Shown here piece after piece: positions 331 through 51,093 of a stretch of DNA of 64,000 nt. The position numbers and the translations under genes are program-made. The notes under the pieces were generated by a model. The model was not told the origin of the DNA, searched no databases, and saw only the letters and a program-made list of their open reading frames with translations. The DNA is from Antedon mediterranea (lineage: Eukaryota; Animalia; Echinodermata), in assembly GCF_964355755.1 (NCBI RefSeq), contig NC_092676.1, positions 3,387,888 to 3,451,887 on the forward strand, given 5' to 3'. How positions within the stretch are numbered: the stretch's first letter is position 1; each line of letters begins with the position of its first letter.

Positions 331-703
331 AAATTAATATGACTGTGTAAAATCAGCAGACAATCAAAACGATAAAATGACTGAAACAGACAGTGAAAAT
401 GAGTATGATTATGTGGAAACATCAGGCATAGGCGTCAAAGAAGGCTCTGCAGAATACATTGAGGTTGTTGATGACACTGATGCTGATTCCATGATTGCAC
501 TACTAAAAACAGAAACTAGTAGGCCTACTGTGGCTGAGTACAATGATGCTTCAATACAACAAAACTATATTTCAATAAATATTAGAGAAAATGATAAAGA
601 GGCTGAGTTCGAAAACAGTAAATTACATCGTGTTAAAGGTATCTTCGACGTATACGAAAACGCATCTGTACGCACAAAACCACTGAAGTCTGCAAGGAAA
701 TAG
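331..703 (+). pseudogene. G0: remnant of a class-A cytoplasmic tail of the Ig receptor family
   Basis: ORF 377-703 (ETDSENEYDYVETSGIG...DVYENASVRTK) aligns to the C-termini of G2 and G9. No ectodomain or TM upstream; the upstream DNA resembles intergenic 32067-32470. Confidence 0.8.
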
Positions 704-1760: not shown

Positions 1761-4040
1761 ATGGCTCATCATCAACATTGTACATTGCTGATGGTTATAT
1801 TGTATACTATGTTTTACTGCTGCTGTGCACAAACCTATACTTTTACAAAACATCCACAATCGGTTCTCGTTAAGGCTGGTTTCCTGTCGACGTAAGAACA
1901 TCACTTTTGTTGCGACTACGTCGATATGTCGTAAGAAATGCGGATTTTACAGGAAACCGATTACGATCAAAAATTTATAAAATCGACGCAACGTAAGAAA
2001 AATGGTAACGACAAACGATTTTACAGGAAACCGATGACCTAACAATTGTTGCGTTACGACGTTTTCTTCCGATTTTACAGGAAACCGGGATTTTTTATCT
2101 TACGCTTGAATGAACGCCCTTGCGTCACGTTTCTTACGTCTCTTACGAAAGTTGACTTGAAGTCAACTTTCGCAAGAGACGTAAGCGCAATCGTAACAAG
2201 TAACCAATGAACGACAAGGGTTATGACGTAATGTGTATGTCCTTATAGTGAAATAAAGCCGGACAATAACATTTGTATGTATTTACTACTATAATTTTAG
2301 TCCACTTTACGATGTTGTACATACTTTACAAATGCACAGTAGTTTCAATATAGGCCTAATAATTTTCTAATCAGGGAGTTTACAACTCATATCAAAATAT
2401 AATACTCTTATTTATGGACGTGCAATAAACAATCAGCATCGGTAGAAACGTCGCGAAAATGAACATTTGCAACAAGATAAGATATAGAAAGCCCCTTTGT
2501 AAGCAATAATATATTATTATGTAACTTTAAAAAAAAATTGTTTGCTTGATTTTGTATAATTTATATTGTTTTGTTAAATTTATTCTCATGCTCGATTAGA
2601 TATGCTTATAGGCCCATAGGCCAATGCCTAGTCTAGGGCCTAGGTCTAATAATAATAATAGGAATCTCGAAATGATTTGCCTTTTTTTAATTTTGAAAAC
2701 TATTTAAGGCTAGGCCTAGAGGGCCAGGATAATTAATTCATATGTTGATTCATACAAATAATACATAGGCCTACTAGCCTAGGCTAGGGGCCTAGGCTAG
2801 TTTGATTGTTTGGTCAAATCAATTCCTATTAGTACAGTATTAATTAAGTATTTTACTAATACTAGGGCCTAGCCTATCTACTGAAAATAACATGTTGGTG
2901 TGCTGCACTGACACTGCTGCTGAGTAGCTACAGGTACAATAACAACATTCAACATTTCGCGCGAAAAATGATAAAACCCGCTCTAAAAAGAAACACCAAT
3001 CAGAGATGTTGTTTCAAATACGTCATAAATCCGACCGACGTAAGAAAAAAATTTCAACTTTCGTAACAACACTAAAATCGACGTAAGCATACGACGTGTG
3101 TTTCACAGCCAAAATTTCAACTTTCGGGAGCAGCATAACTACAGATGTTTCTCTGCGGCCCGACACGATCTTGACTAAGGTCAACGACGTCAATTTTTTC
3201 TCAACTTTCGTAAGAGACGTAAGAAACGTATGAAACGCAAGAATCGTTGCAAAATTCGACTTCTTACGTCGACAGGAAACCAGCCTTTAAGGAAGGACAA
3301 ACAGCAACGTTGTCGTGTGAATGGACAACAGCACCAACACATGACGTTTTCTGGTCTTTTTTTCGCTCGTGTTGGTACGCCTAAATTAATTGAAAGTTTA
3401 ACATTAAAATACAATGTAACAAGTAAAGCAACATCTTCAAATCTTTCCATTTTTAATGTTGATTCTGATGACGTAGGAAGCTTAAGATACAGATGTGATA
3501 TCTTGGATAGTGATTCATACAGTCTTTCTGAACTTGCTTCTGTAGTGCTAGCAGAAATAACGTGCAATCCAGAGAATGGCAATGGTGAGATAGGAACAAC
3601 GCTGACATGTTCTTATATTTTGTCTCATCCGTTAGATAATGTTGATTTATTATGGTACAGATATGGAAGTGTAATTGAATCACATCACAAACAAATGCAT
3701 GTTTTAGAATCAAGGGTTTTGACTGCCGAAGACGATGGAGCTGTATTTACTTGTAAAGCCACAATGGGATCTCAAGTGATAGGAACTTGTGAAACTACTC
3801 CGCTAATATTGAACATAGATGCAGAGATTGAACAATAACCACCAGGTCCACTTCAGGTTGGTGATAGCTTTAATCTCACGTGCTTTGGGAAAGGTAGTCC
3901 TGATCCTGGTAATTATATTTATGAATGGATATGGAACAACATTTCTGTAGATTCTTTGAAAAGTAATTGGCGATTTGCAATAAGCAATGTATTTACTGTG
4001 AAGAGTGTGACAACCAAAGACAATGGTGAAATAGTTACTC
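1761..4040 (+). pseudogene. G1: Ig receptor pseudogene interrupted by a DNA transposon
   Basis: ATG 1761 (MAHHQHCTLL...CCCAQTYTFTKHPQSVLV), interrupted at 1873-3286, resumes KEGQTATLSCEW. Frameshift in the T-run near 3357-3363, TAA at 3836-3838 in place of TCA, and truncated in domain 3 at about 4040 where it joins intergenic-type sequence. Confidence 0.9.
1873..3286. mobile_element. Non-autonomous PIF/Harbinger-like DNA transposon (~1.4 kb)
   Basis: 26-bp perfect TIR aggctggtttcctgtcgacgtaagaa / ttcttacgtcgacaggaaaccagcct. TTA duplicated at 1870-1872 and 3287-3289. Removing the element restores the frame VLVKEGQ. Internal near-palindrome at about 2133-2185. Confidence 0.85.
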
Positions 4041-4809
4041 CATCCATTGATGTTTATTTTATCACATTCAGTATCAGTAAAACAAGTTTCTCCACGCCCA
4101 AAAAAAAAAGGGGACGAAAACCAAAATATTATGACAGAATGGAAAGCTAGTAAAAAACGGTATAAAAAACATCTTAATTTAACCGTTAACACGACATTTG
4201 CTACAACAGGAAAGATAAAGTTATGTGGAGTGTTCTAACCAGTCATAGTTAGCATTTTCAACTTAAACTCTCACTGACCACGCCTCCTCTGGAGGAAAAA
4301 TGGCAATGTATTAGGAAAGTATTTTTAAAGTATTACATCATTAATGTTAAATATTCAGTGGTGCTATTTCCCGGTATTTTATTTCTGCAGTAATCAAGTG
4401 TATCACTAGTGCTGAAGTAGATCATTCCAACTTATATAACAACAAAATAAAGACACAAGTACCAACGTTTAATGTTTGACTACGAATACAGGATCTAACC
4501 GTATACGAAGTTATTTAATATTGGAAATAATGTTGGATTAAAGTGTTTATAAACTGAGTACCATTTGTATCATACGTGTGAACAGGCAAACATTATTTAA
4601 TGTCTAAAACATTATTACTGGTGTCTTAGAATCGTCGCAATAAGGAATATAATTTATAGGAATATTTGCGTAAATCTCAATTTTATAAGGAAGTTCCAAT
4701 ATTCGGACGTCAATCGAGGCGCCTGCGTAATACCCTACTATTCCTACTATAACAACGCATGGGAACATCAATCGAACATTATGTCTGATGATATCTAATA
4801 TTGACTACA

Positions 4810-6936
4810 ATGTTTAAAATGTATCATCAACATTGTACATTGCTGTTTTACAAGTGCTTGATTATATTGTATAGTGTATTTCACTGTTGTTGTGCACAAT
4901 CCTATAATTTTACAAAACAACCAAAATCTGTTCTTGTTGGACAAGGAAGGACAGCAACGTTATCGTGTGAATGGAAACCAGCATTGTATGGAAACTATGA
5001 ATTTGCATGGTCATTTTTCCCCGATCAAAGTAGTAAAAACAATCAACGAATTGGAGTTTCAACTTCCAAGTACAATTTAACAAATATAGCAACCTCTGCA
5101 TATCTTTCCATTTTTAATGTTGGTTACAACGATGTAGGGAACTACAGGTGTGATATCTCGGAAGATGGTGGTTTATACAGTCTTTCTGAACTTGCTTCTG
5201 TAGTGCTAGCAGAAATAGTGTGCGATCCAAAAAATGGTGAGATTGGAACAACGCTGACATGTTCTTTTTATTTTTCTTATTATTATTCACGTGATATTGA
5301 TTTACTATGGTATAAAAACAGGAAACAAATTACATCAAAAGTACAAACAAATTATGTTATAAAATCAAGACCTTTGACTGTCGAAGACGATGGAGCTGTA
5401 TTCACTTGTAAAGCCATAATTAGATCTCAACATCAAATGACAGGAACTTGTGAAACTACTCCGCTAGTATTGACTATAGATGCAGAGATTGAACAATCAC
5501 CGCCAGGTACACATCAGGTTGGAGATAGCTTTAACCTTACCTGCTCAGGGAAAGGTAATCCTGATTATTATAATTATGAATGGACGTGGAATGACAAACC
5601 GGTAAGATCGTGGGCAAATGAAAGACGATTTGCAATAGATAATGTGCTTACTGTGAAGAGTGTATCAAGCAGTTACAATGACAAAATAGTTACTTGTACT
5701 ATTAGTCGCAATGGTCGTAACAGTAGTATAGCAACCTATACAGTGAACGTTATAGAGGAAATGACTACACGTTTGCTATCGACATCTGGTACGCGTACGC
5801 GAAACTCAATTACGCGTCAACTATCAACTGACGTCCCTGATGATGAGTCCCCAACCGTAATGACTACACATTTACAGTCGACACTAGGTATACATACACA
5901 CAAGTCAATTACATACATACTATCAGAAACTAATATCCAGGATAATGATTCTACAATAATATTAATTGTCATCATTGGCGTAGTTGCGATATCTCTTGTG
6001 ATTTTGATAACAGCAATTGTAAATTACATTTTACATAAAAGGCGCAAGAAACAGGATGAGAAAAAAACAAAAGCTGAAAGTGTAACATTGAAAGAACCAA
6101 TGTATGGTAACACTGATCAAGAAATTATTAAAACGCGCGTAAATGGCCGTCTGCGCGAAACGTTGATAACAGATTTTGCTGTATATGAAGAACCTGCAAT
6201 GTCAGACACACATGGAAACTTGGATATTGTTTACGAAGCCCATGACGTGCCGCCACACGACCAATTAACAGAAAAAGATAAGTATGATTATGTTACATCA
6301 GAAGAAATGACAGTTGAAATAGAAAGCAAAAACGAGTATGACTATGCAGCAATAGCAGACACCCACAGTGCCGAGATGACAACTGAACGACACAACTATG
6401 ATTATGTGGTATCAGCAGACATCCACATCACAGAAAATGAATATGACGATGTAAAATCAGCAGACGATCAAAGTGATGAAACAGACAGTGAAAATGAATA
6501 CGAGTATGTGGAAACATCAGGAATAGGCGTTACAGAAAAAGAAGGCTCTGCAGAACACATTGAGGTTGTCGATTACAGCGCTGATGACGATCCCAGTAAA
6601 GATTCACTAAAAACAGAAAATACCAGGCCTACAGCTAGCGAGTACAATGATGCTTCAATGTCACACACTTATATTTCCATCAATGATAATGATAATGAAT
6701 CTGAGTACGAAAACAGAAAATTACATCGTCTTAAAGGTATCTCGACTTCTGACAACTCAAAGACCAAATCCGAAAGTGTTAAATTATTACAGAGATCAGG
6801 AAGAGGTGGAATAACCATTTTAGATAACCGCGAGGATGACGTCAGTAAGGTGAATGCGAGTACAGTTGAAGTAAACGACGTGTACGAAAATGCATCGGTA
6901 CGCACAAAAGCAGTGAAGTGTGCTAAGAAAAAATAG
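4810..6936 (+). CDS. G2: single-exon 3-Ig-domain type I membrane receptor, class-A acidic Tyr-rich tail
   Basis: First ATG 4810 in ORF 4801-6936. Signal peptide; Ig motifs TLSC..W..DVGNYRC, TLTC..WYK..DDGAVFTC, FNLTC..WTW..VTC; Thr-rich stalk; TM IILIVIIGVVAISLVILITAIV; tail with repeated YDYV/YEYV/YEN motifs. Confidence 0.9.
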   Translation: MFKMYHQHCTLLFYKCLIILYSVFHCCCAQSYNFTKQPKSVLVGQGRTATLSCEWKPALYGNYEFAWSFFPDQSSKNNQRIGVSTSKYNLTNIATSAYLSIFNVGYNDVGNYRCDISEDGGLYSLSELASVVLAEIVCDPKNGEIGTTLTCSFYFSYYYSRDIDLLWYKNRKQITSKVQTNYVIKSRPLTVEDDGAVFTCKAIIRSQHQMTGTCETTPLVLTIDAEIEQSPPGTHQVGDSFNLTCSGKGNPDYYNYEWTWNDKPVRSWANERRFAIDNVLTVKSVSSSYNDKIVTCTISRNGRNSSIATYTVNVIEEMTTRLLSTSGTRTRNSITRQLSTDVPDDESPTVMTTHLQSTLGIHTHKSITYILSETNIQDNDSTIILIVIIGVVAISLVILITAIVNYILHKRRKKQDEKKTKAESVTLKEPMYGNTDQEIIKTRVNGRLRETLITDFAVYEEPAMSDTHGNLDIVYEAHDVPPHDQLTEKDKYDYVTSEEMTVEIESKNEYDYAAIADTHSAEMTTERHNYDYVVSADIHITENEYDDVKSADDQSDETDSENEYEYVETSGIGVTEKEGSAEHIEVVDYSADDDPSKDSLKTENTRPTASEYNDASMSHTYISINDNDNESEYENRKLHRLKGISTSDNSKTKSESVKLLQRSGRGGITILDNREDDVSKVNASTVEVNDVYENASVRTKAVKCAKKK

Positions 6937-7289: not shown

Positions 7290-8952
7290 ATGTCTCATCA
7301 TCAATATTGTACATTGCTGTTTTACAAGTGCCTGATTATATTCTATAGTGTATTTCACTGTTGTTCTGCACAATACTATACTTTTACAGAACATCCACAA
7401 TCGGTTCTCGTTACAAAAGGACAAACAGAAACATTATCGTGACAGTCATGTCATTTTCTGGTCAGCATTTCATAGAAGAACGTATACAAGAATTGATAGT
7501 TCAACTTTGAAGTGCAATGTAACAACTAAAGCAAAATCGTCATATCTTTCCATTGTTAATGTTGATTATGATGACGTAGGAAGATACAGGTGTGATATCT
7601 GGAATGGTGGTGATTCATACAATCTTTCACGAGAGGCTTCAGTAGTGTTAGGAGAAATAACGTGCAATCCAGAGAATGACAATGGTGAGATTGGAACAAC
7701 GCTGACATGTTCTTATTTTACTTCTTATTATTCACGTGATATTGATTTACTATGGTATGAAAACAGGAAACAAATTACATGAAAAGTAAAAAAAAAACAA
7801 AGTTACAAAAACAGAAGCGTTGACTGTCGAAGACGATGGAGCTGTATTTACTTGTACAGCCACACTCGCATCTCAACATCAAGTGATAGGAACTTGTGAA
7901 ACTATTCCGCTAGTATTGACTATAGATGCAGAGATTGAACAATCACCACCAGGTCCACTTCAGGTAGGTGATATCTTTAATCTTACCTGCTCAGGGAAAG
8001 GTAATCCTGATTATTATGAATATGAATGGACGTGGAATAACATACCGATACAATCGTCGCCAAGTAAAAGTCGATTTGCAATTGGCAATGTGGTTGTTGT
8101 GAATTGCGTATTAAGCAGTGACAATGGCAAAATAGTTACTTGTACTATTAGTCGTAATGGTCGCAACAGCAGTACAGCGAGCTATACAATAAACGTCTTA
8201 GAGCATGTGTTGAGTAAACCTACATCTTTACAGTCGACATCAAGTACACGTACGTACAAACCCATTACACGTCAAATATCAACAGCAAATGTTCGATATG
8301 ACGTTTCAATGATAGCAGGTTTACACACAGCATCCTTTACTATCACGCAGCATTCCATTACAGACAAAAAGTCCCAAATAGGCCTACAAACGGTTGTCAT
8401 TTGCGTATTTGCAATTTTGCTCCTCGTTTCTATAATAACAATAAGCCTATGTGTGTATTTGCAAAAAACAAAAAAGAAAAACACAATTCCTTCAGATCGA
8501 ATCTCCAATAATCGACAGTCAAATAATTTTGGATTATACGATACGATTATATTACATCATCTGGCATACACGTGACCACGACAGCCAGTGACGAAGTTCA
8601 GTATGATTATGCTATTTACACGGGCACACAAATCACCGAGGGGGTGAATAGCACGGAATACGAATACGAGGTTGGTGTATTATCTTCACGTACTGATAGT
8701 TTCAGAAAAGTCTGCACAAGTGATAAAGAGGTTGAGTACGAACATGATGACACAATAGGCCTAGGCCTACATCTCAAAGATATGACAGGCACTAACACTT
8801 CTGAAAATACATTAGATATTAGGAACAAAAGAATTAAACTATGTAAGCGCCTGAATGCAGCTGGTGGCACTGATGTAAACGTGTACGAAAATAAATCTGT
8901 ATGTACAAAAGCATTGACGTCAGCTACGACATCTTTTATACAAAAGAGATAA
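7290..8952 (+). pseudogene. G3: frameshifted Ig receptor pseudogene
   Basis: ATG 7290. Deletion and stop near 7440, TGA at 7780-7782, frameshifts near 7790-7820 and 8550-8575. Pieces 7348-7782, 7820-8575 and 8572-8952 cover D1-D3, TM and a tail ending VYENKSV. Confidence 0.85.
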
Positions 8953-9452: not shown

Positions 9453-9764
9453 TTTGGGATGAAAATGAAGACAGGATTTTACAAACGATTAAGAAGAATT
9501 TGAGACTTCTTGAAAGAAGGAAAATAATGTAAAAGATTTAAAGATTTATTGTCCCCCAAAAACATGAAAAATGAAGATTAATTCAATCACACTTTGAATA
9601 GGTTATTTTGGGATGAAAATGAAGACAGGATTTTACAAACGATTAAGAAGAATTTGAGACTTCTTGAAAGAAGGAAAATAATGTAAAAGATTTAAAGATT
9701 TATTGTCCCCCAAAAACATGAAAAATGAAGATTAATTCAATCACACTTTGAATAGGTTATTTTG
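9453..9764. repeat. 154-bp tandem duplication that includes the left end of a MITE
   Basis: tttgggatgaaaatgaagacagg... starts at 9453 and again at 9607; the copies look essentially identical. Confidence 0.85.
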
Positions 9765-13111: not shown

Positions 13112-14323
13112 ATGTTTATAATGGCTCATCATGAACATTGTACATTGCTGTTTTACAAGTGCTTGATTTTATTGTATAGTATATTTTACTGTTGTTGTGC
13201 ACAATCCTATACTTTTACAAAACAACCAAAATCTGTTCTTGTTGGACATGGAAACACAGCAACGTTATCGTGTGAATGGAGACCAGCATTGAATGAAAAC
13301 CATGTCGTTTTCTGGTCAGCATACCCTCATGTTGGTGGGTCGCATGCAATTGAAAGGTCAATTTTAAATTACAATTTAACAAATATAGCAACATCTGCAT
13401 ATCTTTCCATTTTTAATGTTGGTTACAATGATGTAGGAAGATACAGGTGTGATATCTGGAATGGTGGTGATTCATACAATCTTTCACGAGAGGCTTCAGT
13501 AGTGTTAGGAGAAATAACGTGCAATCCAGAGAATGACAATGGTGAGATTGGAACAACGCTGACATGTTCTTATTTTACTTCTTATTATTCACGTAATATT
13601 GATTTACTATGGTATAAAAACAGGAAACAAATTACATGAAAAGTATCACAAAGCAATGCTATAAAATCAAGAGCTTTGACTGTTGAAGACGATGTAGCTG
13701 TATTTACTTGTAAAGCCAGAATTAGATCTCAAAATCAAGTGATAGGAACTTGTGAAACTACTCCTATTATATTAAGTATAGATGCAGAGATTGTACAATC
13801 ACCACCAGGTACACTTCAGGTTGGAGATAGCTTCAACCTTACCTGCTTAGGGAAAGGTAATCCTGATTATTATAATTATGAATGGACGTGGAATGGCGAA
13901 CCAGTAGGATCGTCACCAAATGGAAAGCGATTTGCAATTGGCAATGTGGTTACTGCGACGAGTGTATCAATCAATGCTAATGGCAAAATAATTACTTGTA
14001 CCATTAGTCGTGATGGTCGTAATAGCAGTACAGCGAATTATACAATAAACGTTCTAGAGAACATTTCGAGTAGTCCTACAACTACACGATTGCAAACAAC
14101 ACCAACGCAACAAGTCGTTACAGACAAACTACTACCAACTACACGCTTACACACTACACGTTTGCAGTCGACACGTGCGCAACGACTCATTACAAATCCA
14201 GAAAGTACTAGCGCGGCTGAGTACGATAACGTTGCATTGCAACCAACAGATATTTGCAGCGAAGAGCCAAAGTACGAAAATAATAAACTACGTGTTAAAC
14301 GCTACAAGCATGACAACGTCTGA
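13112..14323 (+). pseudogene. G4: Ig receptor copy with an in-frame TGA (13637-13639) and deleted TM; could encode a secreted D1 product
   Basis: ORFs 13103-13639 and 13676-14323 are in the same frame. The stalk is joined directly to the late class-C tail (RLIT|NPES), so there is no TM. Confidence 0.8.
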
Positions 14324-14437
14324 CAATGTAAAAACCAAGTACGAAAATATTTACGCGCTGGCCATCAGTGAGGATAAATACAATGACGTCATATTGAGGA
14401 TCACAGAAGCGCATACTGACGACGCAAACGAGTACGA

Positions 14438-14720
14438 AAATGGATTAGAATGATTAAACCAGTAAACTCTGTTATCTAAATGGACTAGTACGATTAAACC
14501 AGTAAACTCTGTTATCTCAATGGATTAGTGCGATTAAAAACCGTAAAATCTGTTATCTAAATGGATTAGTACGATTAAATCTGTAAACTCTGTTATATAA
14601 ATGGATTAGTACGATTAACCTAGTAAACTCTATTATCTAAATGGATTAGTACGATTAAAAACAGTAAACTCTGTTATCTAAATGGATTAGTACGATTAAA
14701 CCAGTAAACTCTGTTATTCT
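14438..14720 (+). repeat. 40-bp minisatellite, ~7 copies
   Basis: Unit aaatggattagtacgattaaaccagtaaactctgttatct, directly after the class-C gene end. Confidence 0.95.
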
Positions 14721-15969
14721 AAACAAGAACACTTGGAACACTAAGATATAAAAACACACTGAATATTTATATAAAAAGGAAATTGTATGGTTTTCTATAA
14801 TCATTTAATAATGAATGTATAATAATAAGTAACATTTGCTGTTGTTCTGTCACATTTTTATTTTGAAATAATAATATTTTGCTGCGCCACGGGGTCTGGT
14901 TTATATTAACAGTATTCACGTTAGAAGAATAAATCTTTATTGTATTAATATTATTATTATAATATAATTATCTAATCTAAAAATCAAATCATTTTTCAAA
15001 ACTAGAGAGGAAGGCTTCTTTTTAATATTTGTCTCTAAACAACGTTCCGCAGATATACTATAGTATATAGTTTATAGGAAGCAATCAATTGTGAATCTAA
15101 ATGAGGGAAACGTGAGATTTCTCCAGGATCTAAATTTAATTTGAGCAACACAAAAACAATAAGGAAAAAGAAAGAAGTGTTACGAAATGATTAGCCCAAG
15201 ACTTGAAAACAGAGCCTATGATTGATTTATGATTAAGTACCGGTCCAGTCACGTGTTCAGTTTTATACAATCCGGGTTCCAACGAGCACTCCCTAAACTT
15301 GAGCGAGTTCAATGAGTCAATAGAAATGCTAATGCTTTACTGAATTTTGTATTATTTTCGACGATGATTATTGTTATAGGTATTTTGAAGGTGTTACGTT
15401 ATCTTAAACATGTGCGCATGCGCTATGACATTTATAATGTTTCATCAAGTTAACCATAATTTTAATAATTCCAATATCACAGTGAAGTCATGTCATGAGA
15501 AATAGTCTTATCGATTTAACTTGAAAAAACCCGACAAAAACCAATTTAGAATTTCAGTATAATAATCAGAAAAATGGATAAAAAGCTAAATAAAAGAAAA
15601 CAAATAATAATTGTTGAATATTTATCCACACAAAGTGTGAAGTTGAGTACGAGAAGAATACAATAGATATACTGTTAATACAGTATAGTGAACATATCCA
15701 TTGATGTCTATTTTATCACATTCAATATCAGTAAAACAAGTTTCTCCACGCCCAACAAAAAAGGGGACGAAAACCAAAATATTATGACAGAATGGAAAAC
15801 TAGTAAAAACGGTATAAAAAACATCTTAATTTAACCGTTAACACGACAATTGCTACGACAGGAAAGATAAAGTTATGTGGAGTGTTTTAACCAATCACAG
15901 TCACGAACTACTCAGCATTTACAACTTAAACTCTCACTCACCATACGCCTCCGACTGATAGACGTATAT

Positions 15970-15984
15970 CACGCCCTCTGGAGG
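15970..15984 (-). promoter_or_regulatory. CTCF/GC-box-like upstream motif (representative of a recurring element)
   Basis: Reverse complement is CCTCCAGAGGGCGTG; also at 53050 and 62374, with variants at 4279, 36755, 36790 and 45976. Confidence 0.3.
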
Positions 15985-16161
15985 AAAAATGACAATGTAT
16001 TAGGAAAGTATTTTTAAAGTATTACATCATTAATGTTGAATATTCAGTGGCGCTATTTCCTGATATTTTATTTCTGCAGTAATCAAGTTTATCACTGGTG
16101 CTGAAGTAGATCATTCCAACTTATATAAAGACAAAATAAAGACACAAGTGCCAACGTTTAA

Positions 16162-17029: not shown

Positions 17030-19036
17030 ATGTTTATAAAGACTTACCATCAACTTTGTACATTGCTGTTGTACAAGTGCCTGGTTATATTGTATGGTAT
17101 ACTTCACTGTTGTTGTGCACAATCCTATACTTTTACAAAACAACCAAAATCTGTTCTTGTTGGACAAAGAAACACAGCAATGTTGTCGTGTGAGTGGAAA
17201 CCAGCATTGAACGAAAACCATGTCGTTTACTGGTCAGCATACCCTCATGTTGGTGGGACGCAAGCAATCGATAGGTCAACTTTAAAGTACAATTTAACAA
17301 ATATAGCAACATCTGCATATCTTTCCATTTTTAATGTTGGTTACAACGATGTAGGAAGATACAGGTGTGATATCTCGGAAGGTGGTGGTTTATTCAGTCT
17401 TTCTGAACGTGCTTCTGTAGTTCTAGGAGAAATATTGTGCGATCCAAAAAATAGCAATGGTGAGATTGGAACAACGCTGACATGTTCCTATTTTACTTCT
17501 TATTATTCACGTGATATTGATTTACTATGGTATAAAAACAGGAAACAAATTACATCAAAAGTAAAACAAAACAATGCTATAAAATCAAGAGCTTTGACTG
17601 TTGAAGACGATGGAGCTGTATTTACTTGTAAAGCCAGAATTAGATCTCAAAATCAAGTGATAGGAACTTGTGAAACTACTCCTATTATATTAAGTATAGA
17701 TGCAGAGATTGTACAATCACCGCCAGGTCCACTTCAGTTTGGAGATAGCTTTAACCTTACCTGCTTAGGGAAAGGAAATCCTGATTATTATAATTATGAA
17801 TGGACGTGGAATGGCGAACCAGGAGGATCGTCACCAAATGGAAAGCGATTTGCAATTGGCAATGTGGTTACTGTGACGAGTGTATCAAGCAGATACAATG
17901 GCAAAACAGTTACCTGTACTATTAGTCGTAGTGGGCGTAACACAAGTACAGCAACATATACAGTAAACGTTATAGAACAAATGACTACACGTTTGCAGTC
18001 GACATCTGGTACGCGTACGCGCAACTCAATTACGGTCAGACTATCAGAAACTAATGTCGCGCATGACGTTTCACCAGTAATGACTAAAAGTTTACAGTCG
18101 ACACTAGGTACACGTACGTACAAGTCAATTACAGAAACTAATATCCAGGATAATGATTCTACAATAGTAATCATTGTCATCATTGGCGTAGTTGCGATAG
18201 CTCTTGTGAGTTTGATAACAGCGTTTATAATTTACGTTTTAAAGAAAAGGCACAAGACAAAACCCGAAAATGTACCATTGGAAAAACCAGTGTACGGTAA
18301 CACTGAACAAAACATTAACAGTTCTGAAATAGATAATTACCTTTGTGAAAATGTGGAGACAATATACGCAGAACCTGACCTGTCAGAAAATGGTTGCCAT
18401 GTTAAATATGACACGCCACAGAATGCATTAAATATTGATAAAACTGATGATTCTTTAGGTAAGCCAATGAAACCTAATGAAGCAAGTGATGCTAAGCCGG
18501 GAAAAATGACAAGTGCCGAAAGTACAGATGCAATACAAGTAAAACCGATCAAGGCCCGCAGTAAAGAAATTATTGAAGATCTGTATTCTAAGCCTAACAA
18601 ACGGAATGCGAAAACGCCGATCGAGGCCCAAAGCAAAGAGAATCTTGAAGATCTGTATACTAGGCCTAATAAACCGACTGCAAGCAGACCAATCAAGGCC
18701 CACAATGTTAAAGAAAGTCTTGAAGATCTGTATTCTAAGCCTAACAAACGGAATGCGAAAACGCCGATCGAGGCCCAAAGCAAAGAGAATCTTGAAAATC
18801 TGTATACTAGGCCTAATAAACCGACTGCAAGCAGACCAATCAAGGCCCACAATGTTAAAGAAAGTCTTGAAGATCTGTATTCTAAGCCTAACAAACCAAC
18901 GACAAGAACGCCAGAAATTACGCACGAAAATTCTACTAAAAAAAACGTAGAAGGCTTAACGTACGCAGAAATAGAGTTTACCCCTGAACCACAGGACTAC
19001 GGGCTTGATTACGCAACTGTACAGATTAAAAAGTAA
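17030..19036 (+). CDS. G5: 3-Ig receptor, class-B tail with five LY(S/T)(K/R)PNK repeats and paired ITIM-like motifs
   Basis: 668-aa ORF with SP, 3 Ig domains and TM IVIIVIIGVVAIALVSLITAFIIYVL; tail ends EGLTYAEI...GLDYATVQIKK. Confidence 0.9.
   Translation: MFIKTYHQLCTLLLYKCLVILYGILHCCCAQSYTFTKQPKSVLVGQRNTAMLSCEWKPALNENHVVYWSAYPHVGGTQAIDRSTLKYNLTNIATSAYLSIFNVGYNDVGRYRCDISEGGGLFSLSERASVVLGEILCDPKNSNGEIGTTLTCSYFTSYYSRDIDLLWYKNRKQITSKVKQNNAIKSRALTVEDDGAVFTCKARIRSQNQVIGTCETTPIILSIDAEIVQSPPGPLQFGDSFNLTCLGKGNPDYYNYEWTWNGEPGGSSPNGKRFAIGNVVTVTSVSSRYNGKTVTCTISRSGRNTSTATYTVNVIEQMTTRLQSTSGTRTRNSITVRLSETNVAHDVSPVMTKSLQSTLGTRTYKSITETNIQDNDSTIVIIVIIGVVAIALVSLITAFIIYVLKKRHKTKPENVPLEKPVYGNTEQNINSSEIDNYLCENVETIYAEPDLSENGCHVKYDTPQNALNIDKTDDSLGKPMKPNEASDAKPGKMTSAESTDAIQVKPIKARSKEIIEDLYSKPNKRNAKTPIEAQSKENLEDLYTRPNKPTASRPIKAHNVKESLEDLYSKPNKRNAKTPIEAQSKENLENLYTRPNKPTASRPIKAHNVKESLEDLYSKPNKPTTRTPEITHENSTKKNVEGLTYAEIEFTPEPQDYGLDYATVQIKK
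18575..18897 (+). repeat. Coding tandem repeat, 147-bp (49-aa, 24+25) dimeric unit in the G5 tail
   Basis: gaagatctgtattctaagcctaacaa at 18575, 18722 and about 18869. Confidence 0.9.
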
Positions 19037-22804: not shown

Positions 22805-24520
22805 ATGGCTCATTCTCAATATTGGACATTGCTGTTCTTCAAGTTTCTGATTATATTTCATATATCTCACTGTTGTCATGCGCAGTACTACAATTTTACA
22901 GAACATCCACAATCGGTTCTCGTTGCAGACGGACAAACTACAACGCTATCGTGTGAATGGACACCAGCATTGAATAACAACCATCTCGTAACATGGAAAT
23001 ACGATCGTGTTAATAGTCCTAAACGAATTGAAATTTCAGATACAAAATACGCATTAATGAACGAAGCAACATCTTCAAGTCTTTCCATTTCTAATGTTGG
23101 CTCTGGTGACGTAGGCAACTACATTTGTGAGATCTTCGAATGTGATTCATACAACAGTGTCTCATCTTCTACATTTGCTTCTCTAGTATTAGGAGAATTG
23201 ATATGTAATCCGGAGAATATTGTTGATATAGGAACAACGCTGATATGCTCCTTCACCTCTTCTGATAATTCATATATTATTAATTTACTATGGTATAACA
23301 ACGGAAAAAAAATAACTTCGGGACAACAACAAAACAATGATTTAGAATCAACGGCTCTGACTGCCGAAGACGAAGGAGGTGTATTTACTTGTAAAACCAC
23401 TATCGGATTTCAAAGTCAAGCGACAGGAACTTGTGAAACTACTCCACTAGTATTTCCAATAGATGCAGAGATTCAACAATCACCACCAGGTCCACTTCAG
23501 GTTGGTGATAGCTTTAATCTTACCTGCGTAGGGAAAGGTAATCCTGAAAATTATAATTACGAATGGACGTGGAATAACAACCCAGTAGAATCTATGACAG
23601 ATAGTCGATTTGCAATTGGCAATATGGTTATTGTGAATACTGTATCAGGCAGTGACAATGGCAAAATGGTTTCTTGTACTATTAGTAGTGGTGGTTACAG
23701 AAGTATAGCGAGCTATACAATAAACATTTTGGATCAGACGTCGAGTACAACTACAAGTATGTCGACACCAGATAGGCCTACACGTACGCAAAAACCAATT
23801 ACGGCGGTCAGACTCACAATACCTGATGACCCGGATGACATTTCAACAACAGTAATGACTACACGTTTAAAGTCGACACTAGATACACGTACGCAAAAAC
23901 CAATTACGGTCAGACTCACAACACATAATGTTCCGGATGACATTTCAACAACAGCAATGACTACACCAGGTACACGTTTGCAAAAACCAATTACACATCA
24001 ACTCACAACACATAAAGTCTCGGAAGACGTTTCCGCAACAGTAGACCTAATGAATACACGTTTAAACACAACACCTGTTACTGTAACGCGTTCTATTACA
24101 GAAATCCTAACGGTTGTAATTATCGTAGTTGCAATTTTACTCGTCGTTTCTTTGATAATAATAATAAGCCTATGTGTTTATTTGCAAAAAAGAAAAAAGA
24201 AAAACACAACTCCTTCAAATCGACTGTCAAATAATCTTGAGCACGTTTACTATTCCATTACGTCATCTAGCGCACACGTGACCTCGACAGCCAGTAACAC
24301 TAAGTATGATTATGTCATACACCCGTTCACACGCAATACGGAAGAATCCACTCCTGAGTACCTTGAATTGGACGATGGTTTCCAAGATGGCGCACCAAAA
24401 TCAGCAAGTAATACAGCCGCTGATTACGATGATGTTGCATCGGAACAAACAGATACTAATAACAAAGAGTACAAATACGAAAATGGTATGCTGCGGGATA
24501 AAGGTATCAGAGAGACATAA
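22805..24520 (+). CDS. G6: divergent 3-Ig receptor with a long repeated mucin-like stalk and class-C-related tail
   Basis: ATG 22805 in ORF 22790-24520. Three TR(T/L)QKPIT stalk units; TM ILTVVIIVVAILLVVSLIIIISLCVYL; tail YDYV, EYLEL, DYDDV, KYEN. Confidence 0.88.
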   Translation: MAHSQYWTLLFFKFLIIFHISHCCHAQYYNFTEHPQSVLVADGQTTTLSCEWTPALNNNHLVTWKYDRVNSPKRIEISDTKYALMNEATSSSLSISNVGSGDVGNYICEIFECDSYNSVSSSTFASLVLGELICNPENIVDIGTTLICSFTSSDNSYIINLLWYNNGKKITSGQQQNNDLESTALTAEDEGGVFTCKTTIGFQSQATGTCETTPLVFPIDAEIQQSPPGPLQVGDSFNLTCVGKGNPENYNYEWTWNNNPVESMTDSRFAIGNMVIVNTVSGSDNGKMVSCTISSGGYRSIASYTINILDQTSSTTTSMSTPDRPTRTQKPITAVRLTIPDDPDDISTTVMTTRLKSTLDTRTQKPITVRLTTHNVPDDISTTAMTTPGTRLQKPITHQLTTHKVSEDVSATVDLMNTRLNTTPVTVTRSITEILTVVIIVVAILLVVSLIIIISLCVYLQKRKKKNTTPSNRLSNNLEHVYYSITSSSAHVTSTASNTKYDYVIHPFTRNTEESTPEYLELDDGFQDGAPKSASNTAADYDDVASEQTDTNNKEYKYENGMLRDKGIRET

Positions 24521-25624: not shown

Positions 25625-25790
25625 ACAAAGATTAATAGTTCACCCTCAACATTGGACTATGTTGTTTTACAAATGCTTGATTATATTTAATTATTATACA
25701 CTTGTTAAAAACCACCGATATCGGTTATCGTTGCGAAAAGACAAACACCAACGTCATCGTGTGAATGAACACCAGAATTATATGCAAACG
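25625..25790 (+). pseudogene. Decayed 5' end (signal peptide and start of D1) of a family member
   Basis: tcaacattggactatgttgttttacaaatgcttgattata ... tcggttatcgttgcg ... tcatcgtgtgaatgaacaccagaa resembles paralog 5' ends, with stops and indels. Confidence 0.6.
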
Positions 25791-26644: not shown

Positions 26645-28306
26645 ATGGCTCATCATCAATGTTGTACATTGCTGTTGTACAAGTGCCTGATTACATTGTA
26701 TAGTGTATTTCACTGCTGTTGTGCACAATCCTATACATTTACAAACGGTCCAGAATCGGTTCTCGTTGCTGAAGGACAAACAGTAACGTTATCTTGGGCA
26801 TGGACACCTGAATTGAATGAAAACCATTTTTTTAAATGGGTATACTATCCTGTTGGTAGAGCGGGTCAAGTAATTGAAAGTTCAACGTCAAAATACACTT
26901 TCACAAAAGGTACAACATTTTCAAATCTTTCCATTTTGAATGTTGGTCCTAATGATGTAGGAACATACTTGTGCCGTATCTCCGAAGGTGATCGTCTATA
27001 CAGTTACAGTGAAACTACTTATGTAGTGCTAGGAGTGTTAACGTGCAGTCCAGAATATGATAATGGTGACAAAGGAACAACGATGACATGTTCTTATGCT
27101 TCATCTTATCCTGCATATGCTATTGATTTACTATGGTATAAAAACGGGAATAAAATTACTTTAGCAGCACAACTACAAAATGGTATCAAAGAATCAAGAG
27201 CTTTGACTGCTGAAGACGATGGAGCTGTATTTACTTGTAAAGCCACAATTTATTCTGAAAAGATAGGAAGTTGTGAGACTACTCCGCTAATATTGAATAT
27301 AGATGCGGAGATTGAACAATCTCCGCCAGGTACACTTCAGGTTGGTGATAGCTTTACCCTTACCTGCTCAGGGAAAGGTAATCCTGAGTATTATAATTAT
27401 ACATGGACGTGGAGTGGCAAACCTGTAGGATCGTCATCAAATGAAAGGCCATTTGTAATAGGTAATTTGCTTATTGTGACGTGTGTATCAAGCAGTGACA
27501 ATGGCAAAATAGTTACTTGTACCATTAGTCGTGATGGCCGTAACAGCAGTACAGCGAGGTATACAAAACACGTCTTAGAGAATACGCCTACTGTTACAGA
27601 CTTACTATCAGCAAACAATGTCACAGACAACGAGCCTCAAACATTGATTATTGTCATTGGCGTAGTTGCAACAGTTATTGTGATTTTGATAACAGCAATT
27701 GTAATTTTCATTTTACATAAGAGGCGCAAGAAACAGGATGACAAAAAGACAAAACCTGAAAATGTACCATTGAAAGAACCAATGTATAGTAACACTGATA
27801 AAAATATTAACAGTTCTGAAAAATCACGCATACAAAATGGCCCTCGAAGTGAAAAGTTGAGAACAGATTTTACAGTATATGATGAGCCTACGATTTCAAG
27901 TTCAAATACTCAGTTGGAGACTATGTACGCCGAACCTGACAGGTTAGTAACTGGTCACGATGAAAGGTATGACACGCCACGGAACGCTATAAGTCTTGAT
28001 AATATCGATTCAGTGAGTACTGATCAAGCGAGTAACGCTAAGCCAAGAAAAACAAAAAGCAGAGAAAGTATTGATGCAATGTACGCGAAACCGAACAAGT
28101 CTCGCAGTAAAGAAAGTATTGATGATCTGTACGCTACGCCTAACAAACCGACTGCAAGAACGCCAGAGATTACCTGCGAAGATCCTACTAAGAAAAACGT
28201 AGAAGGCCTAACATACGCAGATATAGAGTTTAAAGGTGGTACGTCTCCAAACCCTGAACCACAGGACTACGGACTTGATTACGCAACTGTACAGATTATG
28301 AAGTAA
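26645..28306 (+). CDS. G7: 3-Ig receptor, short stalk, class-B ITIM-like tail; D1 lacks the first (B-strand) Cys
   Basis: ATG 26645. TLSWAW instead of TLSCEW; tail MYAKP, LYATP, LTYADI, LDYATV. Confidence 0.88.
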   Translation: MAHHQCCTLLLYKCLITLYSVFHCCCAQSYTFTNGPESVLVAEGQTVTLSWAWTPELNENHFFKWVYYPVGRAGQVIESSTSKYTFTKGTTFSNLSILNVGPNDVGTYLCRISEGDRLYSYSETTYVVLGVLTCSPEYDNGDKGTTMTCSYASSYPAYAIDLLWYKNGNKITLAAQLQNGIKESRALTAEDDGAVFTCKATIYSEKIGSCETTPLILNIDAEIEQSPPGTLQVGDSFTLTCSGKGNPEYYNYTWTWSGKPVGSSSNERPFVIGNLLIVTCVSSSDNGKIVTCTISRDGRNSSTARYTKHVLENTPTVTDLLSANNVTDNEPQTLIIVIGVVATVIVILITAIVIFILHKRRKKQDDKKTKPENVPLKEPMYSNTDKNINSSEKSRIQNGPRSEKLRTDFTVYDEPTISSSNTQLETMYAEPDRLVTGHDERYDTPRNAISLDNIDSVSTDQASNAKPRKTKSRESIDAMYAKPNKSRSKESIDDLYATPNKPTARTPEITCEDPTKKNVEGLTYADIEFKGGTSPNPEPQDYGLDYATVQIMK

Positions 28307-29331: not shown

Positions 29332-31349
29332 ATGGCTCGTCAGCAATTGTACATTGCTAATTATATTGTATAGTATATTTCACTGCTGTTTTGGAAAAAC
29401 ATATTTGTTCACAGAAGATCCACAATCGGTTCTCGTTGCAGAAGGACAAACAGCAACGCTATCGTGTGTTTGGAAACCAGAATTGTTCGAACAGCATAAC
29501 TTTGAATGGGTATTATTCCCTCAGGATTACGGTGAATCTCAATCAATTAAAATGTCAAATTCAAAATACAATTTAATAAATAACGCAACATCTTCATATC
29601 TTTCCATTTCCAATGTTGATTCTGATGACGCGGGAAACTACAGGTGTGATATCATCGGAATGAATGAATTCAGTTATTCTGATCAGGCTGCCGTAGTGAT
29701 AGGAGAAATAATGTGCAATCCAGAATATGATAAAGGTGAGATAGGAACAAAGCTGAAATGTTCTTATACTTCTTCTTATCCTTTAAATGATATTTATTTA
29801 CGATGGTATAAAGACGGAAATATAGTAATATCAGACACAAAAGACAAACACGTTTTAGAATCAAGAGCTTTGACTGCTGAAGACGATGGAGCTGTATTTA
29901 CTTGTAAAGCCACAGTTGGATCTCAAGTGATAGGAACTTGTGAAACTACTCCTCTAGTATTGACTATAGATGCAGAGATTGAACAATCACCACCAGGTCT
30001 ACTTCAGGTTGGAGATAGCTTTAATCTTACCTGCTCAGGGAAAGGTAACCCCGATTATTATGAATATGAATGGACGTGGAATGGCAACCCCGTACGATCG
30101 TCACCAAATGAAAGTCGATTTTCAATAGAGAGTGTAGTTACTGTGAAGGATGTATCAAGCAGTGCTAATGGCAAAATAGTTACTTGTACTATCTGTCATA
30201 GTGGTCGTGACACCAGTGTAGCGAATCATACAATCAATATTTCAGAGAATATGCAAAGTACAACTGCACGTTCACACACAACACAAGTTACGCCTACTGT
30301 TACAGACCTACTATTACCAACCATTTTATCTGAAACCAAACTATCAACAAACAATGTCGCAGACAACGACCCCCAAATATTGATTATTGTCATTGGCGTA
30401 ATTGCAGCCGTTATTGTGATTTTGATAACAGCAATTGTAATTTTAATTTACATTTTACATAAAAGGCGCAAAAAACAGGATGGCAACAAGACAAAACCTG
30501 ACAATGTACCATTGAAAGAACCAATATACAACTCTGATCAAGAAAGTATTATTGAAACGCGCGTAGATGGCTCTCTGCGCGAAACGCTGATAACAGATTT
30601 GGCTGTATATGATGAACCTGCAATGTCAGACACACATGGAAACTTGCAGATTGTTTACGAAGACCCTGACGTGCCGCCACACGGCCAATTAACAGAAAAA
30701 GACAAGTATGATTATGTTACATCAGAAGAAATGACAGTTGAAAGAGAAAGCAAAAACGAGTATGACTATGCGGCAATAACAGACACTCACAGTGCCGAGA
30801 TGACAGATGAATCAGACATTAAAAATAACTATGATTATGTGGTATCAGTAGACACCCACAGCACAGAAAATGAATATGACGATGTAACATCAGCAGACGA
30901 TCAAAACGATGAAACAGAAAATGAGTATGATTATGTGGAAACATCAGGCATAGGCGCCACAGAAAAAGAAGGCTCTGCAGAATACATTGAACTTGTTGAT
31001 GACAACGCCGATGTCGCCTGTCACCAGAGGAAGCCACTAACAACTAATATCTAATATGCCTGCTGCATCCAAGTACAATGTTGCTTCAATGTCACAAACT
31101 TATAGAGCAAATGATAATGAGGCTGAGTACGAAAACAGTAAATTACATCGTCCCAAAGGTATCTCGACTTCTGACAACTCAAACACACAGTTATCACAGA
31201 GATCAAGAAGAGATGGAATAACCATTTCAGATAATCGCGAAGATGACGTCACCAAGGTGCATACGAGTACAGTTGAAGTACCTGATACAAACGACGTGTA
31301 CGAAAATGCATAGGTACGAACAAAAGCAGCGAAGGGTTCTAAGAAATAG
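29332..31349 (+). pseudogene. G8: probable pseudogene, class-A tail
   Basis: ATG 29332 is out of frame with ORF 29354-31054 (small deletion in the signal peptide). The tail is disrupted near 31010-31056 and has TAG at 31311-31313 in place of TCG. Confidence 0.75.
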
Positions 31350-39332: not shown

Positions 39333-39847
39333 AAGAAGAATAACATAATCAACCGTACAGAATATTCATGCAAAAACAAACAATGAAAGAAACTTGTTTA
39401 TGAATGCTTAATCCCTAAATTAGAGGTTTATGGCAGGTATGATATCTTTAGTATTAAGGTTTTTATTAGTGAAATTGTTAACTTTCAACATTTGCAAACT
39501 AGTGTCCTTACGTACAGGGATGTGACTTAAAAGTATTGTAAGACTAGTATGGGCCATGGTACTTTCATGGTAAGAGAAATAGAAAAGTAGGCTAAATATA
39601 TAAGTTAATGTCTTGAATTATTATAGCATTAGTTAAAAAAGTATTGTAATTTTGTTTAAGGAAGTAAATAAAAATATTATATTAGAAATAATCAACTCTG
39701 AAATGAACATTAACCAGAAAAGGGAAGGAAGGAAGTATTAACAGATGATTAGCAAGAATTAAAACTGTACAGAAAAGAGAAAAGAAAAACAGAATAAAAT
39801 TCATCGATAAAATATCCTAATTTGGCATGAAATAAGCAACAATACTA

Positions 39848-40882
39848 ATGCTGACTATAGATGCAGAGATTGAACAGTCACCACCAGGTCCACTTCAGGC
39901 TGGGGATAGGTTTACCCTTACCTGTTCAGGGAAAGGTAATCTTGATTATTATGAATGGACGTGGAATGGCAAACCTAGGATAGGATCGTCGACAGATAAA
40001 AGTCGATTTGCAATAGATAATGTGCTTACTGCGACGAGAGTATCAATCAATGCTAATGGCAGAATAGTTACTTGTACTATTAGTCGTAGTGGTCGTAACA
40101 GCAGTACAGCGAGTTTTACAATAAATGTTCTACAGAACAATTCGAGTAGGCCTACTACTACACATTTGCAAACAACACCAACACAACAAGTCGTTACAGA
40201 CAAACTACTACCAACTACACGATTACACACTACACGTTTACATTCGACACGTACGCAACAAGTCTTTACAGACAAACAACTACCAACTACACGCTTACAC
40301 ACTACACGTTTACACACTACATGTTTGTCGACACGTACGCAACGATTCACTAAAGACCTAAAACTATCAGAAACTAATATATCGGCTGACAAGCCCCCAA
40401 CACTAATGGTTGTAATTAGTGTACTTGCAATTTTACTCGTAGTTTCTTTAATATTAATAATATACATGTATTTACAAAAAAGAAACGTATCTAGAGACAA
40501 CATAATTCCTTTAAATCGACCACCGAAAAATATTGGACACATTTACGATTATATTGTGTCTTCAGACACACAGATCAACACGAAAGGCCATGACACAAAC
40601 ACGTATGATTATGCCATATATCCGTGTACTCGCATCGCAGAGAACACAAGTGCTGAATACATTGAAGTAGAAGACAGTTTCCATGAGGGCCCACAAAAAC
40701 CAGAACAAAATATGACCGCAGTCGAGAACGATGATGTGTCCTTACAACCAACGGATATTTGCAGCAAAGAGGCCACGTACGAAAATGGTGAATTGCGTAT
40801 CAAAGGCATAGCAACTTCTGACAATATAACAACAATTAAGTACGAAAATACTAAATCATCTACGCATCTACAGGAAATATAA
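39848..40882 (+). pseudogene. G10: 5'-truncated copy (D3, stalk, TM, class-C tail only)
   Basis: The ORF begins at the D2/D3 boundary (LTIDAEIEQSPPG), fused to class-A 3'-flank sequence. No signal peptide, D1 or D2. Confidence 0.75.
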
Positions 40883-50979: not shown

Positions 50980-51093
50980 CAATGTAAAAACCAAGTACGA
51001 AAATATTTACGCGCTGGCCATCAGTGAGGATAAATACAATGACGTCATATTGAGGATCACAGAAGCGCATACTGACGACGCAAACGAGTACGA

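Follow-up and report, generated by a model that had tools for sequence, protein, structure and literature searches.

Clustered immunoglobulin (Ig) receptors that combine a diversifying outer domain with exchanged tails form the core of vertebrate innate self/non-self sensing. To our knowledge, only a few such clusters are on record from outside the vertebrates, examples being Alr of Hydractinia and FF/FcoR of Botryllus. The stretch considered here, a 64,000-nucleotide window of Antedon mediterranea (contig NC_092676.1, forward-strand positions 3,387,888 to 3,451,887; all positions below are those within the window), carries a family of type I membrane receptor genes without introns, arranged in tandem on one strand, whose copies are numbered G1 to G15. 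It is moderately probable that the first Ig domain of this family (D1) diversifies at about a tenth of its codons, located on the C-C'-F-G strands, as a predicted ligand-contact face. The kind of system is already known from KIR/LILR, SIRP, CEACAM, Botryllus FcoR and Hydractinia Alr; the array appears to add a new family to it.

Regarding the vertebrate clusters (KIR/LILR, SIRP, CEACAM, CD300 and FcR-like), the likeness to the array is one of design; homology to any named family is not demonstrated, and the matches of a profile search against the Protein Data Bank (PDB) are generic. In vertebrate Ig superfamily receptors one domain is encoded per exon, and the array differs in being intron-free. 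The array resembles the general pattern of the clustered vertebrate families (PMC1193534, PMC7042247, PMC2413239, PMC3210942, PMC12447643) in its tandem multigene arrangement with pseudogenes, in having a membrane-distal Ig domain that is the most diversified, in the exchange of domains between paralogs and, in some tails, in pairs of immunoreceptor tyrosine-based inhibition motifs (ITIMs) of the xTYAxI/L type. The SIRP alpha and gamma ectodomains are among the Foldseek matches of the array ectodomain. Inhibitory-type ITIM tails like those of the paired KIR/LILR/SIRP receptors are also predicted in the array (G5 and G7). In contrast, the activating partners of such receptors, which have a near-identical ectodomain and either a short tail with a charged transmembrane (TM) segment or an immunoreceptor tyrosine-based activation motif (ITAM), were not seen in it.

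The two invertebrate systems approach the array from different sides. As described for Hydractinia Alr (PMC9546547), the receptors of that cluster span the membrane once and have between one and three Ig-like domains, of which domain 1 is variable; pseudogenes are many, and ITAM or ITIM motifs occur in some Alr tails. Clustering, a single TM segment, a variable domain 1, pseudogenes and ITIMs in some tails are all features in which the array is alike. According to the same source, each domain, the extracellular spacer (ECS) and the TM segment of Alr lie on exons of their own and most canonical Ig motifs are missing, whereas the array consists of intron-free open reading frames (ORFs) with canonical motifs and Pfam Ig matches above the cut-offs. 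Botryllus FcoR, of the fuhc region, is described (PMC12065747, PMC12582321) as a large family whose members are type I receptors 520-610 aa in length. They start with a V-type Ig domain, followed by more Ig domains, a single TM segment and long tails carrying ITIM, hemITAM or YxxI/L/V core motifs, and intergenic recombination occurs. The array is alike in forming a large family of type I receptors, in its V/I-type outermost domain, further Ig domains, single TM segment and long tails with tyrosine motifs, and in recombination between copies. It differs from what these sources report, namely a Sushi domain between Ig1 and Ig2, multiple exons and alternative splicing: each array gene is one ORF, and no Sushi domain was detected in the Pfam scans (whole proteins at E up to 1, D2 alone at E up to 0.1). 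The array is a member of neither Alr nor FcoR.

A six-frame motif scan combined with tblastn using the G2 protein located a single gene family in the window, present as 15 copies or sizeable fragments that all lie on the plus strand (see the table). Eight of them (G2, G5, G6, G7, G9, G11, G12 and G14) are uninterrupted from Met to stop, and G15 is a ninth open copy, running to the window end. The remaining six of the 15 are broken or truncated: G1, G3 and G13 are frameshifted, G4 contains a stop, G8 lacks an ATG and G10 is 5'-truncated. Each full copy is a single intron-free ORF from the signal peptide through the stop codon, encoding the signal peptide, three Ig domains (D1 to D3), a repeated Thr/Ser/Arg-rich stalk and a single TM helix, after which come a basic stop-transfer stretch and a Tyr-rich tail. 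Self-comparison of the window reveals both tandem and recent segmental duplication.

The family belongs to the immunoglobulin superfamily, as indicated by Pfam, by sequence motifs and by the model of D1. The family proteins match Ig_3, Ig_2, I-set and ig above the cut-offs, and the Cys-Trp-Cys and DxGxYxC signatures of the Ig fold are canonical when read directly in the alignment. The AlphaFold model of the G2 D1 alone reaches a predicted local distance difference test score (pLDDT) of 90.1. In mature G2 numbering, its strands are A 4-7, A' 12-15, B 20-27, C 34-41, C' 50-52, D 59-64, E 67-72, F 81-89 and G 93-105; the C' strand is thus short, and a C'' strand is absent. This model aligns to I-set and V-type D1 domains alike (VIA-align Z 13-14.4; Foldseek template-modelling score 0.7-0.82). 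Pfam likewise would place D1 on the border between V-set and I-set: the G2 D1 alone scores 34.4 bits for V-set (cut-off 26) and 30.2 bits for I-set, and in the whole-protein scan V-set stays below its cut-off for G5 (15.5 bits) and G6 (16.8 bits). D2 and D3 appear C2-like by their Ig_2 and Ig_3 matches, D2 alone matching Ig_2 and C1-set, and Pfam detects no domain of another kind in the receptors. In two otherwise open genes a canonical D1 disulfide cysteine is lost, Cys1 being replaced by Trp in G7 (LSWAW, 26789) and Cys2 by Phe in G11 (YRFEI, 43748). In every copy, D2 (5218-5478 in G2, for instance) contains four conserved cysteines, two of them beyond the canonical pair, which suggests an extra disulfide linking the start and the end of the domain.

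The variability of the three domains was compared in an alignment of 11 ectodomains with 298 columns (D1, 1-114; D2, 115-205; D3, 206-298). Mean identity is 0.59 in D1, 0.66 in D2 and 0.70 in D3, mean column entropy is 0.96, 0.82 and 0.71, and gaps affect 12 of 114, 9 of 91 and 3 of 93 columns, respectively; the difference in entropy between D1 and D3 is significant (p 0.024). Within D1, the first-pass annotation had located variation and indels after the first Cys and around the Trp, and again after the second Cys. This is readily apparent in the alignment. Segment 1 (columns 27-56) and segment 2 (columns 89-106) have amino-acid identities of 0.45 and 0.42, compared with 0.68 in the remaining D1 framework, and contain all 12 of the D1 gap columns. 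Their mean entropy is 1.27 vs 0.74 in the framework (Mann-Whitney p 7e-4), a test that is partly circular because the segments were picked post hoc. Of the 269 possible 30-column windows of the ectodomain, the most variable starts at column 38, just before the D1 Trp. Entropy also peaks within D2, over columns 151-165 and 181-190. The peptide strings quoted in the annotation are all present in the translations, both the segments after Cys1 (G2, G5, G6, G7, G9 and G12) and those after Cys2 (ISEDGGLY, IWNGGDSY, IFECDSYN, IIGNNEYS and IFDSDSTY), and the near-invariance that it ascribed to the LTxEDDGAVFTC and EIEQSPPG blocks is borne out by a sliding entropy of 0.28-0.46 across columns 166-180 and of about 0.3 across columns 206-225. 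The term "hypervariable", on the other hand, overstates the case, as D1 reduces to a few types: identity is 77-92% within the group G4/G5/G14/G15 and 72-86% within G8/G9/G11, and the D1 domains of G2, G6, G7 and G12 stand separately.

Recombination screening shows that domains have been reshuffled among the copies, with the main breakpoint in the conserved D2 block. In the approximately unbiased (AU) test, both the D2 data (dlnL 26, p-AU 0.0015) and the D3 data (dlnL 67, p-AU 8e-4) reject the D1 tree. The pairwise homoplasy index (PHI) is significant for the whole ectodomain (p 0.001) and within D2 (p 0.001); it gives no recombination signal within D1 (p 0.23) or within D3 (p 0.31). A single-breakpoint scan places the optimum within the conserved D2 block, following column 174 (dlnL +152), with a smaller local optimum at the D1/D2 border. 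Upstream of this breakpoint, D2 columns 129-151 (G2 about 5260-5330) occur in two haplotype-like forms of the B-C region, which differ by many nonsynonymous and few synonymous changes (pN/pS 1.8-2.8, pS 0.07-0.12) and are spread over the copies independently of D3.

Since the domain trees disagree, the selection tests were run per domain and per module. Our own code for GY94/F3x4 maximum-likelihood site models, with full branch-length optimisation, was applied to the 11 sequences on per-domain trees. Under M0, the ratio of nonsynonymous to synonymous rates (omega) is 0.50-0.63 over the domains, with 0.63 in D1. For D1, the comparison of M1a with M2a gives 2dlnL 16.4 (p 2.8e-4), with omega2 of 3.19 for a proportion p2 of 0.12; the corresponding values are 21.7 for M7 vs M8 and 17.1 for M8a vs M8. 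Both the M1a/M2a and the M7/M8 comparison thus favour positive selection in D1, as the first-pass annotation had anticipated. The result of the D1 likelihood-ratio test (LRT) holds for the seven intact genes only (21.4), for gap-free columns (15.1), on the whole-ectodomain tree (14.4), in three alternative MAFFT alignments (23.2, 25.0 and 35.1) and for the seven indel-free sequences (11.0, p 0.004). A parametric bootstrap under M1a behaved as it should: none of 74 simulations reached the observed 15.98, and three of the 74 exceeded 5.99.

The other domains behave differently. D3 is not significant for M1a vs M2a (2.89, p 0.24); its M7 vs M8 comparison is significant (11.2) and its M8a vs M8 comparison (3.0) is not, which is taken as no support for selection. 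D2 columns 115-160 on the N-module tree are not significant for M1a vs M2a either (p 0.098). The N module (columns 1-160) gives 25.1 (p 3.5e-6) for M1a vs M2a, with eight of its nine sites with P>0.8 lying in D1, and the C module (columns 175-298) gives 6.6 (p 0.038). By counting, pN/pS is 0.63 in the D1 framework, 0.86 in D2 and 0.64 in D3; along the gene, pS is fairly even (0.07-0.38) and pN ranges from 0.05 to 0.38. A pattern of dN/dS at most 1 at the variable sites with equal variability in D1, D2 and D3 was not observed. About one in ten D1 codons, on one sheet of the fold, is likely to be under diversifying selection.

Twelve D1 sites have a posterior above 0.5 (columns 38, 40, 43, 46, 51, 52, 54, 85, 91, 95, 96 and 104). 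Those with P(omega>1) of at least 0.7 correspond to the G2 codons 4999-5001 (column 38), 5005-5007 (column 40), 5014-5016 (column 43), 5041-5043 (column 52), 5140-5142 (column 85), 5170-5175 (columns 95-96) and 5191-5193 (column 104). Sites with P>0.5 make up 12 of the 44 positions in C, CC', C', F, FG and G, compared with 0 of 63 elsewhere (Fisher p 8.5e-6): none falls among the six positions of the BC loop, and none on the A-B-E-D sheet. Column 104 shows seven different residues in the 11 sequences, its alignment being unambiguous for 10 of them. N-glycosylation sequons show the opposite distribution, with 12 of 13 occurrences in D1 falling on strands A, D or E, that is, on the other sheet. 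Taking into account that the sites all lie on C-C'-F-G and the sequons opposite, it is the GFCC' sheet that forms the variable face, and not the BC/CC'/FG face named in the first-pass annotation, of which CC' and FG are retained, together with strands C, C', F and G, and the BC loop is not. Many V-type and I-type receptor domains bind through their GFCC' face, and from the fold and by analogy the GFCC' sheet of D1 is the predicted ligand-contact face. D2 sites were left unmapped because the model of that domain is poor (pLDDT about 35 in the AlphaFold model of the full ectodomain).

The poor D2 model is one of several points that weigh against ligand-driven diversification of D1. Regarding the tests, the home-made site-model code was checked by simulation only and not against PAML or HyPhy, and the naive empirical Bayes (NEB) posteriors ignore parameter uncertainty. 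The sequences compared are 11 paralogs of one haplotype and not alleles, so that the inferred selection is between paralogs; four of them (G4, G7, G8 and G11) are broken or lack a canonical Cys. Regarding D2, its entropy does not differ significantly from that of D1 (p 0.24), and its own M1a vs M2a comparison is nominally significant (10.3, p 0.006), a test confounded by recombination and discounted as unreliable because the recombination lies inside the domain. Regarding the tails, a strict ITAM was found in none of the 11 scanned, no K, R, D or E is read in any TM segment, and no short tail with a charged TM residue occurs. Finally, the top sites 40, 43, 52 and 104 adjoin indels, the D1 LRT falls to 3.08 (p 0.21) when the 12 gap columns and 14 gap-flanking columns are left out, and the two segments taken whole give by counting a pN/pS of 1.18 with a bootstrap confidence interval (CI) of 0.85-1.64, compatible with neutrality. 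As the interval for the whole segments includes 1 and the LRT is lost without the flanking columns, the evidence consists of a few sites and not of the segments as blocks. The diversifying selection proposed in the first-pass annotation is thus partly supported: it is likely for a small set of D1 codons whose omega exceeds 1, D3 being without signal, and is not supported for the segments as a whole, whose interval spans 1.

The same segment ratio and the same loss of the LRT would also fit relaxed constraint, in which a tolerant C-C' and FG surface would drift near-neutrally in a family decaying by birth and death and the class with omega above 1 would be indel-adjacent noise. The broken or truncated copies (six of 15), two more without a D1 cysteine and the M0 omega, high everywhere, fit such an account. 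We nevertheless regard it as unlikely: the LRT remains significant for intact genes, for indel-free sequences and in four different alignments, no simulation under M1a reached the observed value, column 104 varies among sequences whose alignment is unambiguous, and confinement of the candidate sites to one sheet is not predicted by drift in exposed loops alone. A recombination artefact, in which old D1 lineages reshuffled by gene conversion and forced onto a wrong single tree would inflate nonsynonymous change, has a real basis in the array, as seen in the PHI and AU results, the gain of 152 in lnL from one breakpoint and the two haplotype-like forms in D2. It is nonetheless a very improbable source of the D1 signal, given that PHI within D1 is not significant, that the breakpoint optimum lies in late D2 and not in D1, and that D1 and the N module are each still significant on their own tree.

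A different question is whether the diversification is real and serves adhesion and not immune-type recognition, as a cell-identity code with homophilic or heterophilic D1-D1 binding of the nectin/Necl, Kirrel/SYG-1, Dpr/DIP or IgLON type. The proteins of these families bind through the GFCC' sheet of D1, the same sheet that carries the candidate sites. The D1 fold of nectin/Necl-CADM, Kirrel/SYG-1, Dpr/DIP and IgLON proteins is alike, RIG-5 Ig1, Kirrel2 D1, SYG-1 D1, Neph1 and Dpr/DIP Ig1 being tied with the array D1 at Z 13.2-13.8, and the three-domain V-C2-C2 ectodomains of the adhesion receptors Necl-4 and nectin-1 are among the top Foldseek rows for the whole ectodomain (E 1e-10 to 1e-12). 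These scores are equally tied with unrelated Ig domains such as titin I-set and antibody V domains, so that they are not diagnostic. Furthermore, adhesion codes are usually conserved, single-copy and intron-containing genes, not arrayed with pseudogenes, whereas the array shows rapid turnover, many pseudogenes and ITIM pairs; the tails of the adhesion families have PDZ or 4.1 motifs in place of ITIM or YxN motifs. An adhesion code is accordingly rated as improbable, and a D1 that diversifies on its GFCC' sheet as a ligand-contact face remains the preferred reading.

The cytoplasmic parts bear on how such a face might be used. The tails of full copies are 111-304 aa long with 8-18 tyrosines, and the 11 tails scanned fall into three unrelated classes (A, B and C in the table), class C carrying YxN motifs. 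Pairs of strict ITIMs, defined as [ILVS]xYxx[ILV], occur only in the two class-B tails (2 of 11). Like D1 domains are found on unlike tails: those of G5 (B) and G14 (C) are 86% identical, and those of G9 (A) and G11 (C) 76%. By analogy with known receptors, D1 would bind a variable ligand through its glycan-free GFCC' face, and binding would be read out via tyrosine phosphorylation of the tails. The paired-ITIM tails of G5 and G7 would recruit SH2 phosphatases and thus be inhibitory, the YxN-rich A and C tails might recruit Grb2-type adaptors, and copies with the same D1 type on different tails (G5 vs G13/G14; G8/G9 vs G11) could function in the manner of paired receptors. Birth and death of copies would drive the turnover of the family, as in receptor clusters of the immune type or for self/non-self recognition. 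As a separate observation, the G5 tail contains an internal 147-bp tandem repeat that multiplies the tyrosine motif E[DN]LY[ST][KR]PNK, and the antisense ORF over this region is a by-product of the repeat; the antisense ORFs of the window were likewise rejected as genes, being repeat by-products.

Searches for relatives returned little beyond the general fold. Two word-seeded, length-limited searches of 5.8 billion proteins, with G2 residues 30-330 and with the 286-aa ectodomain, gave no match at E<=0.001, a weak hint that the sequence family is isolated. The PDB sequence profile search returned generic Ig matches only (for example titin, VEGFR, NCAM, CEACAM1 and antibody light chains). The same applies to the structure searches (titin and obscurin, antibody V domains, neuroplastin, SIRP, nectin/Necl, Kirrel, SYG-1 and Dpr/DIP) and to a protein-atlas search, where generic Ig clusters scored 0.92-0.94. 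As far as sequence comparison goes, the family is apparently undescribed.

Taken further, the array could be an independently evolved, non-vertebrate recognition locus: a retrogene-like, intron-free V-C2-C2 family whose D1 diversifies on the GFCC' sheet and is swapped, by recombination in the conserved D2 block, onto inhibitory tails with double ITIMs or tails with other tyrosine motifs, forming a germline-encoded paired-receptor or histocompatibility-type system without sequence relatives in current collections. We put this forward tentatively, as a doubtful extension of the D1 result. A further case of this kind would inform how often the design evolves, the array being one in which Ig motifs are canonical, ITIMs occur in pairs and introns are lacking. 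Its natural D1 variants would also form a compact set, easy to clone, in which to look for ligands. Should the family be already annotated and ordinary in its host, it is a routine example of paralog diversification.

Table. Receptor copies, family fragments and repeats in the 64-kb window (positions within the window; tail classes as described in the text)
Feature	Position	Strand	D1	Tail class	Remarks
Tail fragment	332-700				orphan piece of the family
Signal-peptide fragments	1767-1892; 25647-25789				orphan pieces of the family
G1	3230-4048	+			pseudogene; D1-D3 remnants in two frames; stop in EIEQ*PPG
G2	4810-6936	+	4897-5217	A	uninterrupted ORF, 708 aa; D2 5218-5478, D3 5479-5754; Thr/Ser stalk, TM, tail of 304 aa with 18 Tyr and 3 YxN motifs
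G2 segment under study	4960-5200	+			within D1, from LSCEW (B-strand Cys) to the G strand
G3	7296-8575	+			pseudogene; pieces in three frames
G4	13112-14323	+	13202-13516		likely pseudogene; in-frame stop 13637-13639; without TM segment
G5	17030-19036	+	17120-17434	B	uninterrupted ORF, 668 aa; strict ITIMs LTYAEI and LDYATV
G5 tail repeat	18544-18896				147-bp unit, 2.4 copies, 96% matches; antisense ORF 18337-18996
G6	22805-24520	+	22883-23200	C	uninterrupted ORF; most divergent D1; long repeated stalk
G7	26645-28306	+	26726-27040	B	uninterrupted ORF; ITIMs LTYADI and LDYATV
G8	29333-31054	+	29396-29710	A	likely pseudogene; signal region without ATG; tail resumes out of frame at 31059-31319
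G9	37431-39332	+	37506-37820	A	uninterrupted ORF, 633 aa; polar residues in TM segment
G10	39839-40882	+		C	5'-truncated; only D3, stalk, TM and tail
G11	43439-44920	+	43505-43828	C	uninterrupted ORF; D1 of G8/G9 type
G12	46447-48003	+	46528-46848	C	uninterrupted ORF; 3-residue insertion in D1 after PAL
G13	49415-50979	+		C	pseudogene; frameshift near 50120; D1 of G5 type
G14	53541-55091	+	53628-53942	C	uninterrupted ORF; D1 86% identical to that of G5
LINE-type ORF	55492-58842	+			between G14 and G15; RVT_1 and zf-RVT
G15	62885-64000	+	62975-63289		open to window end; D1 92% identical to that of G5
Segmental duplication of spacer DNA between family members	14519-16161 vs 60925-62565				98.9% identity
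Segmental duplication of spacer DNA between family members	14193-14939 vs 50849-51590				98.5% identity
40-bp satellite arrays	14438-14723; 48118-48856; 51094-51373; 55206-55328; 60923-61129				
Tandem duplication	9453-9764				154 bp, exact
Spacers with very high contig depth	9339-10672; 16009-17342; 19344-20000				
[GT]ATAAGGAA[GT]T	4684; 12985; 16912; 46299; 53419; 62767	+			upstream of G2, G4, G5, G12, G14 and G15, respectively

The surroundings of the genes point to a cellular genome, and the Ig motifs, the tyrosine motifs, the inserted retroelement and the lack of introns suggest an animal that is probably not a vertebrate. The window is AT-rich, with a GC content of 0.25-0.38 in 2-kb bins, and a viral origin was rejected in view of the several-kb spacers, the pseudogenes and the long interspersed nuclear element (LINE). 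The endonuclease part of the LINE-type ORF is 5'-truncated, and its reverse transcriptase has 1310 relatives at identities of up to 49%. A scan with the Rfam gathering thresholds gave no matches in the window. Sequence is shared between the window and nine sequencing runs from three studies under two organism labels, the best of which contains 0.45 of its words; no RNA run is listed among these nine. Contigs at least 97% alike, from both labels, cover both genes and spacers. Summed contig depth was lowest over 5008-5084 and highest over 5470-5623, and in a run presumed to be RNA the gene bodies were covered more than single-copy spacers; as contig depth cannot rank parts, neither observation is used as evidence.

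A motif of the form [GT]ATAAGGAA[GT]T occurs six times in the window, always on the plus strand and about 120-150 nt upstream of an ATG, and degenerate forms of it precede G6, G7, G9 and G11. The motif may represent a TATA-like or GATA/ETS-like promoter element, or merely shared ancestry.

Several repeats accompany the duplications. Two very recent segmental duplications involve spacer DNA between family members. The 40-bp satellite arrays are located directly downstream of genes with type-C tails; the satellite belongs to the unit that was duplicated, and unequal crossing-over might make use of it. Furthermore, an exact tandem duplication of 154 bp is present, and three spacers show very high summed contig depth in three runs, indicating that they are probably high-copy dispersed repeats.

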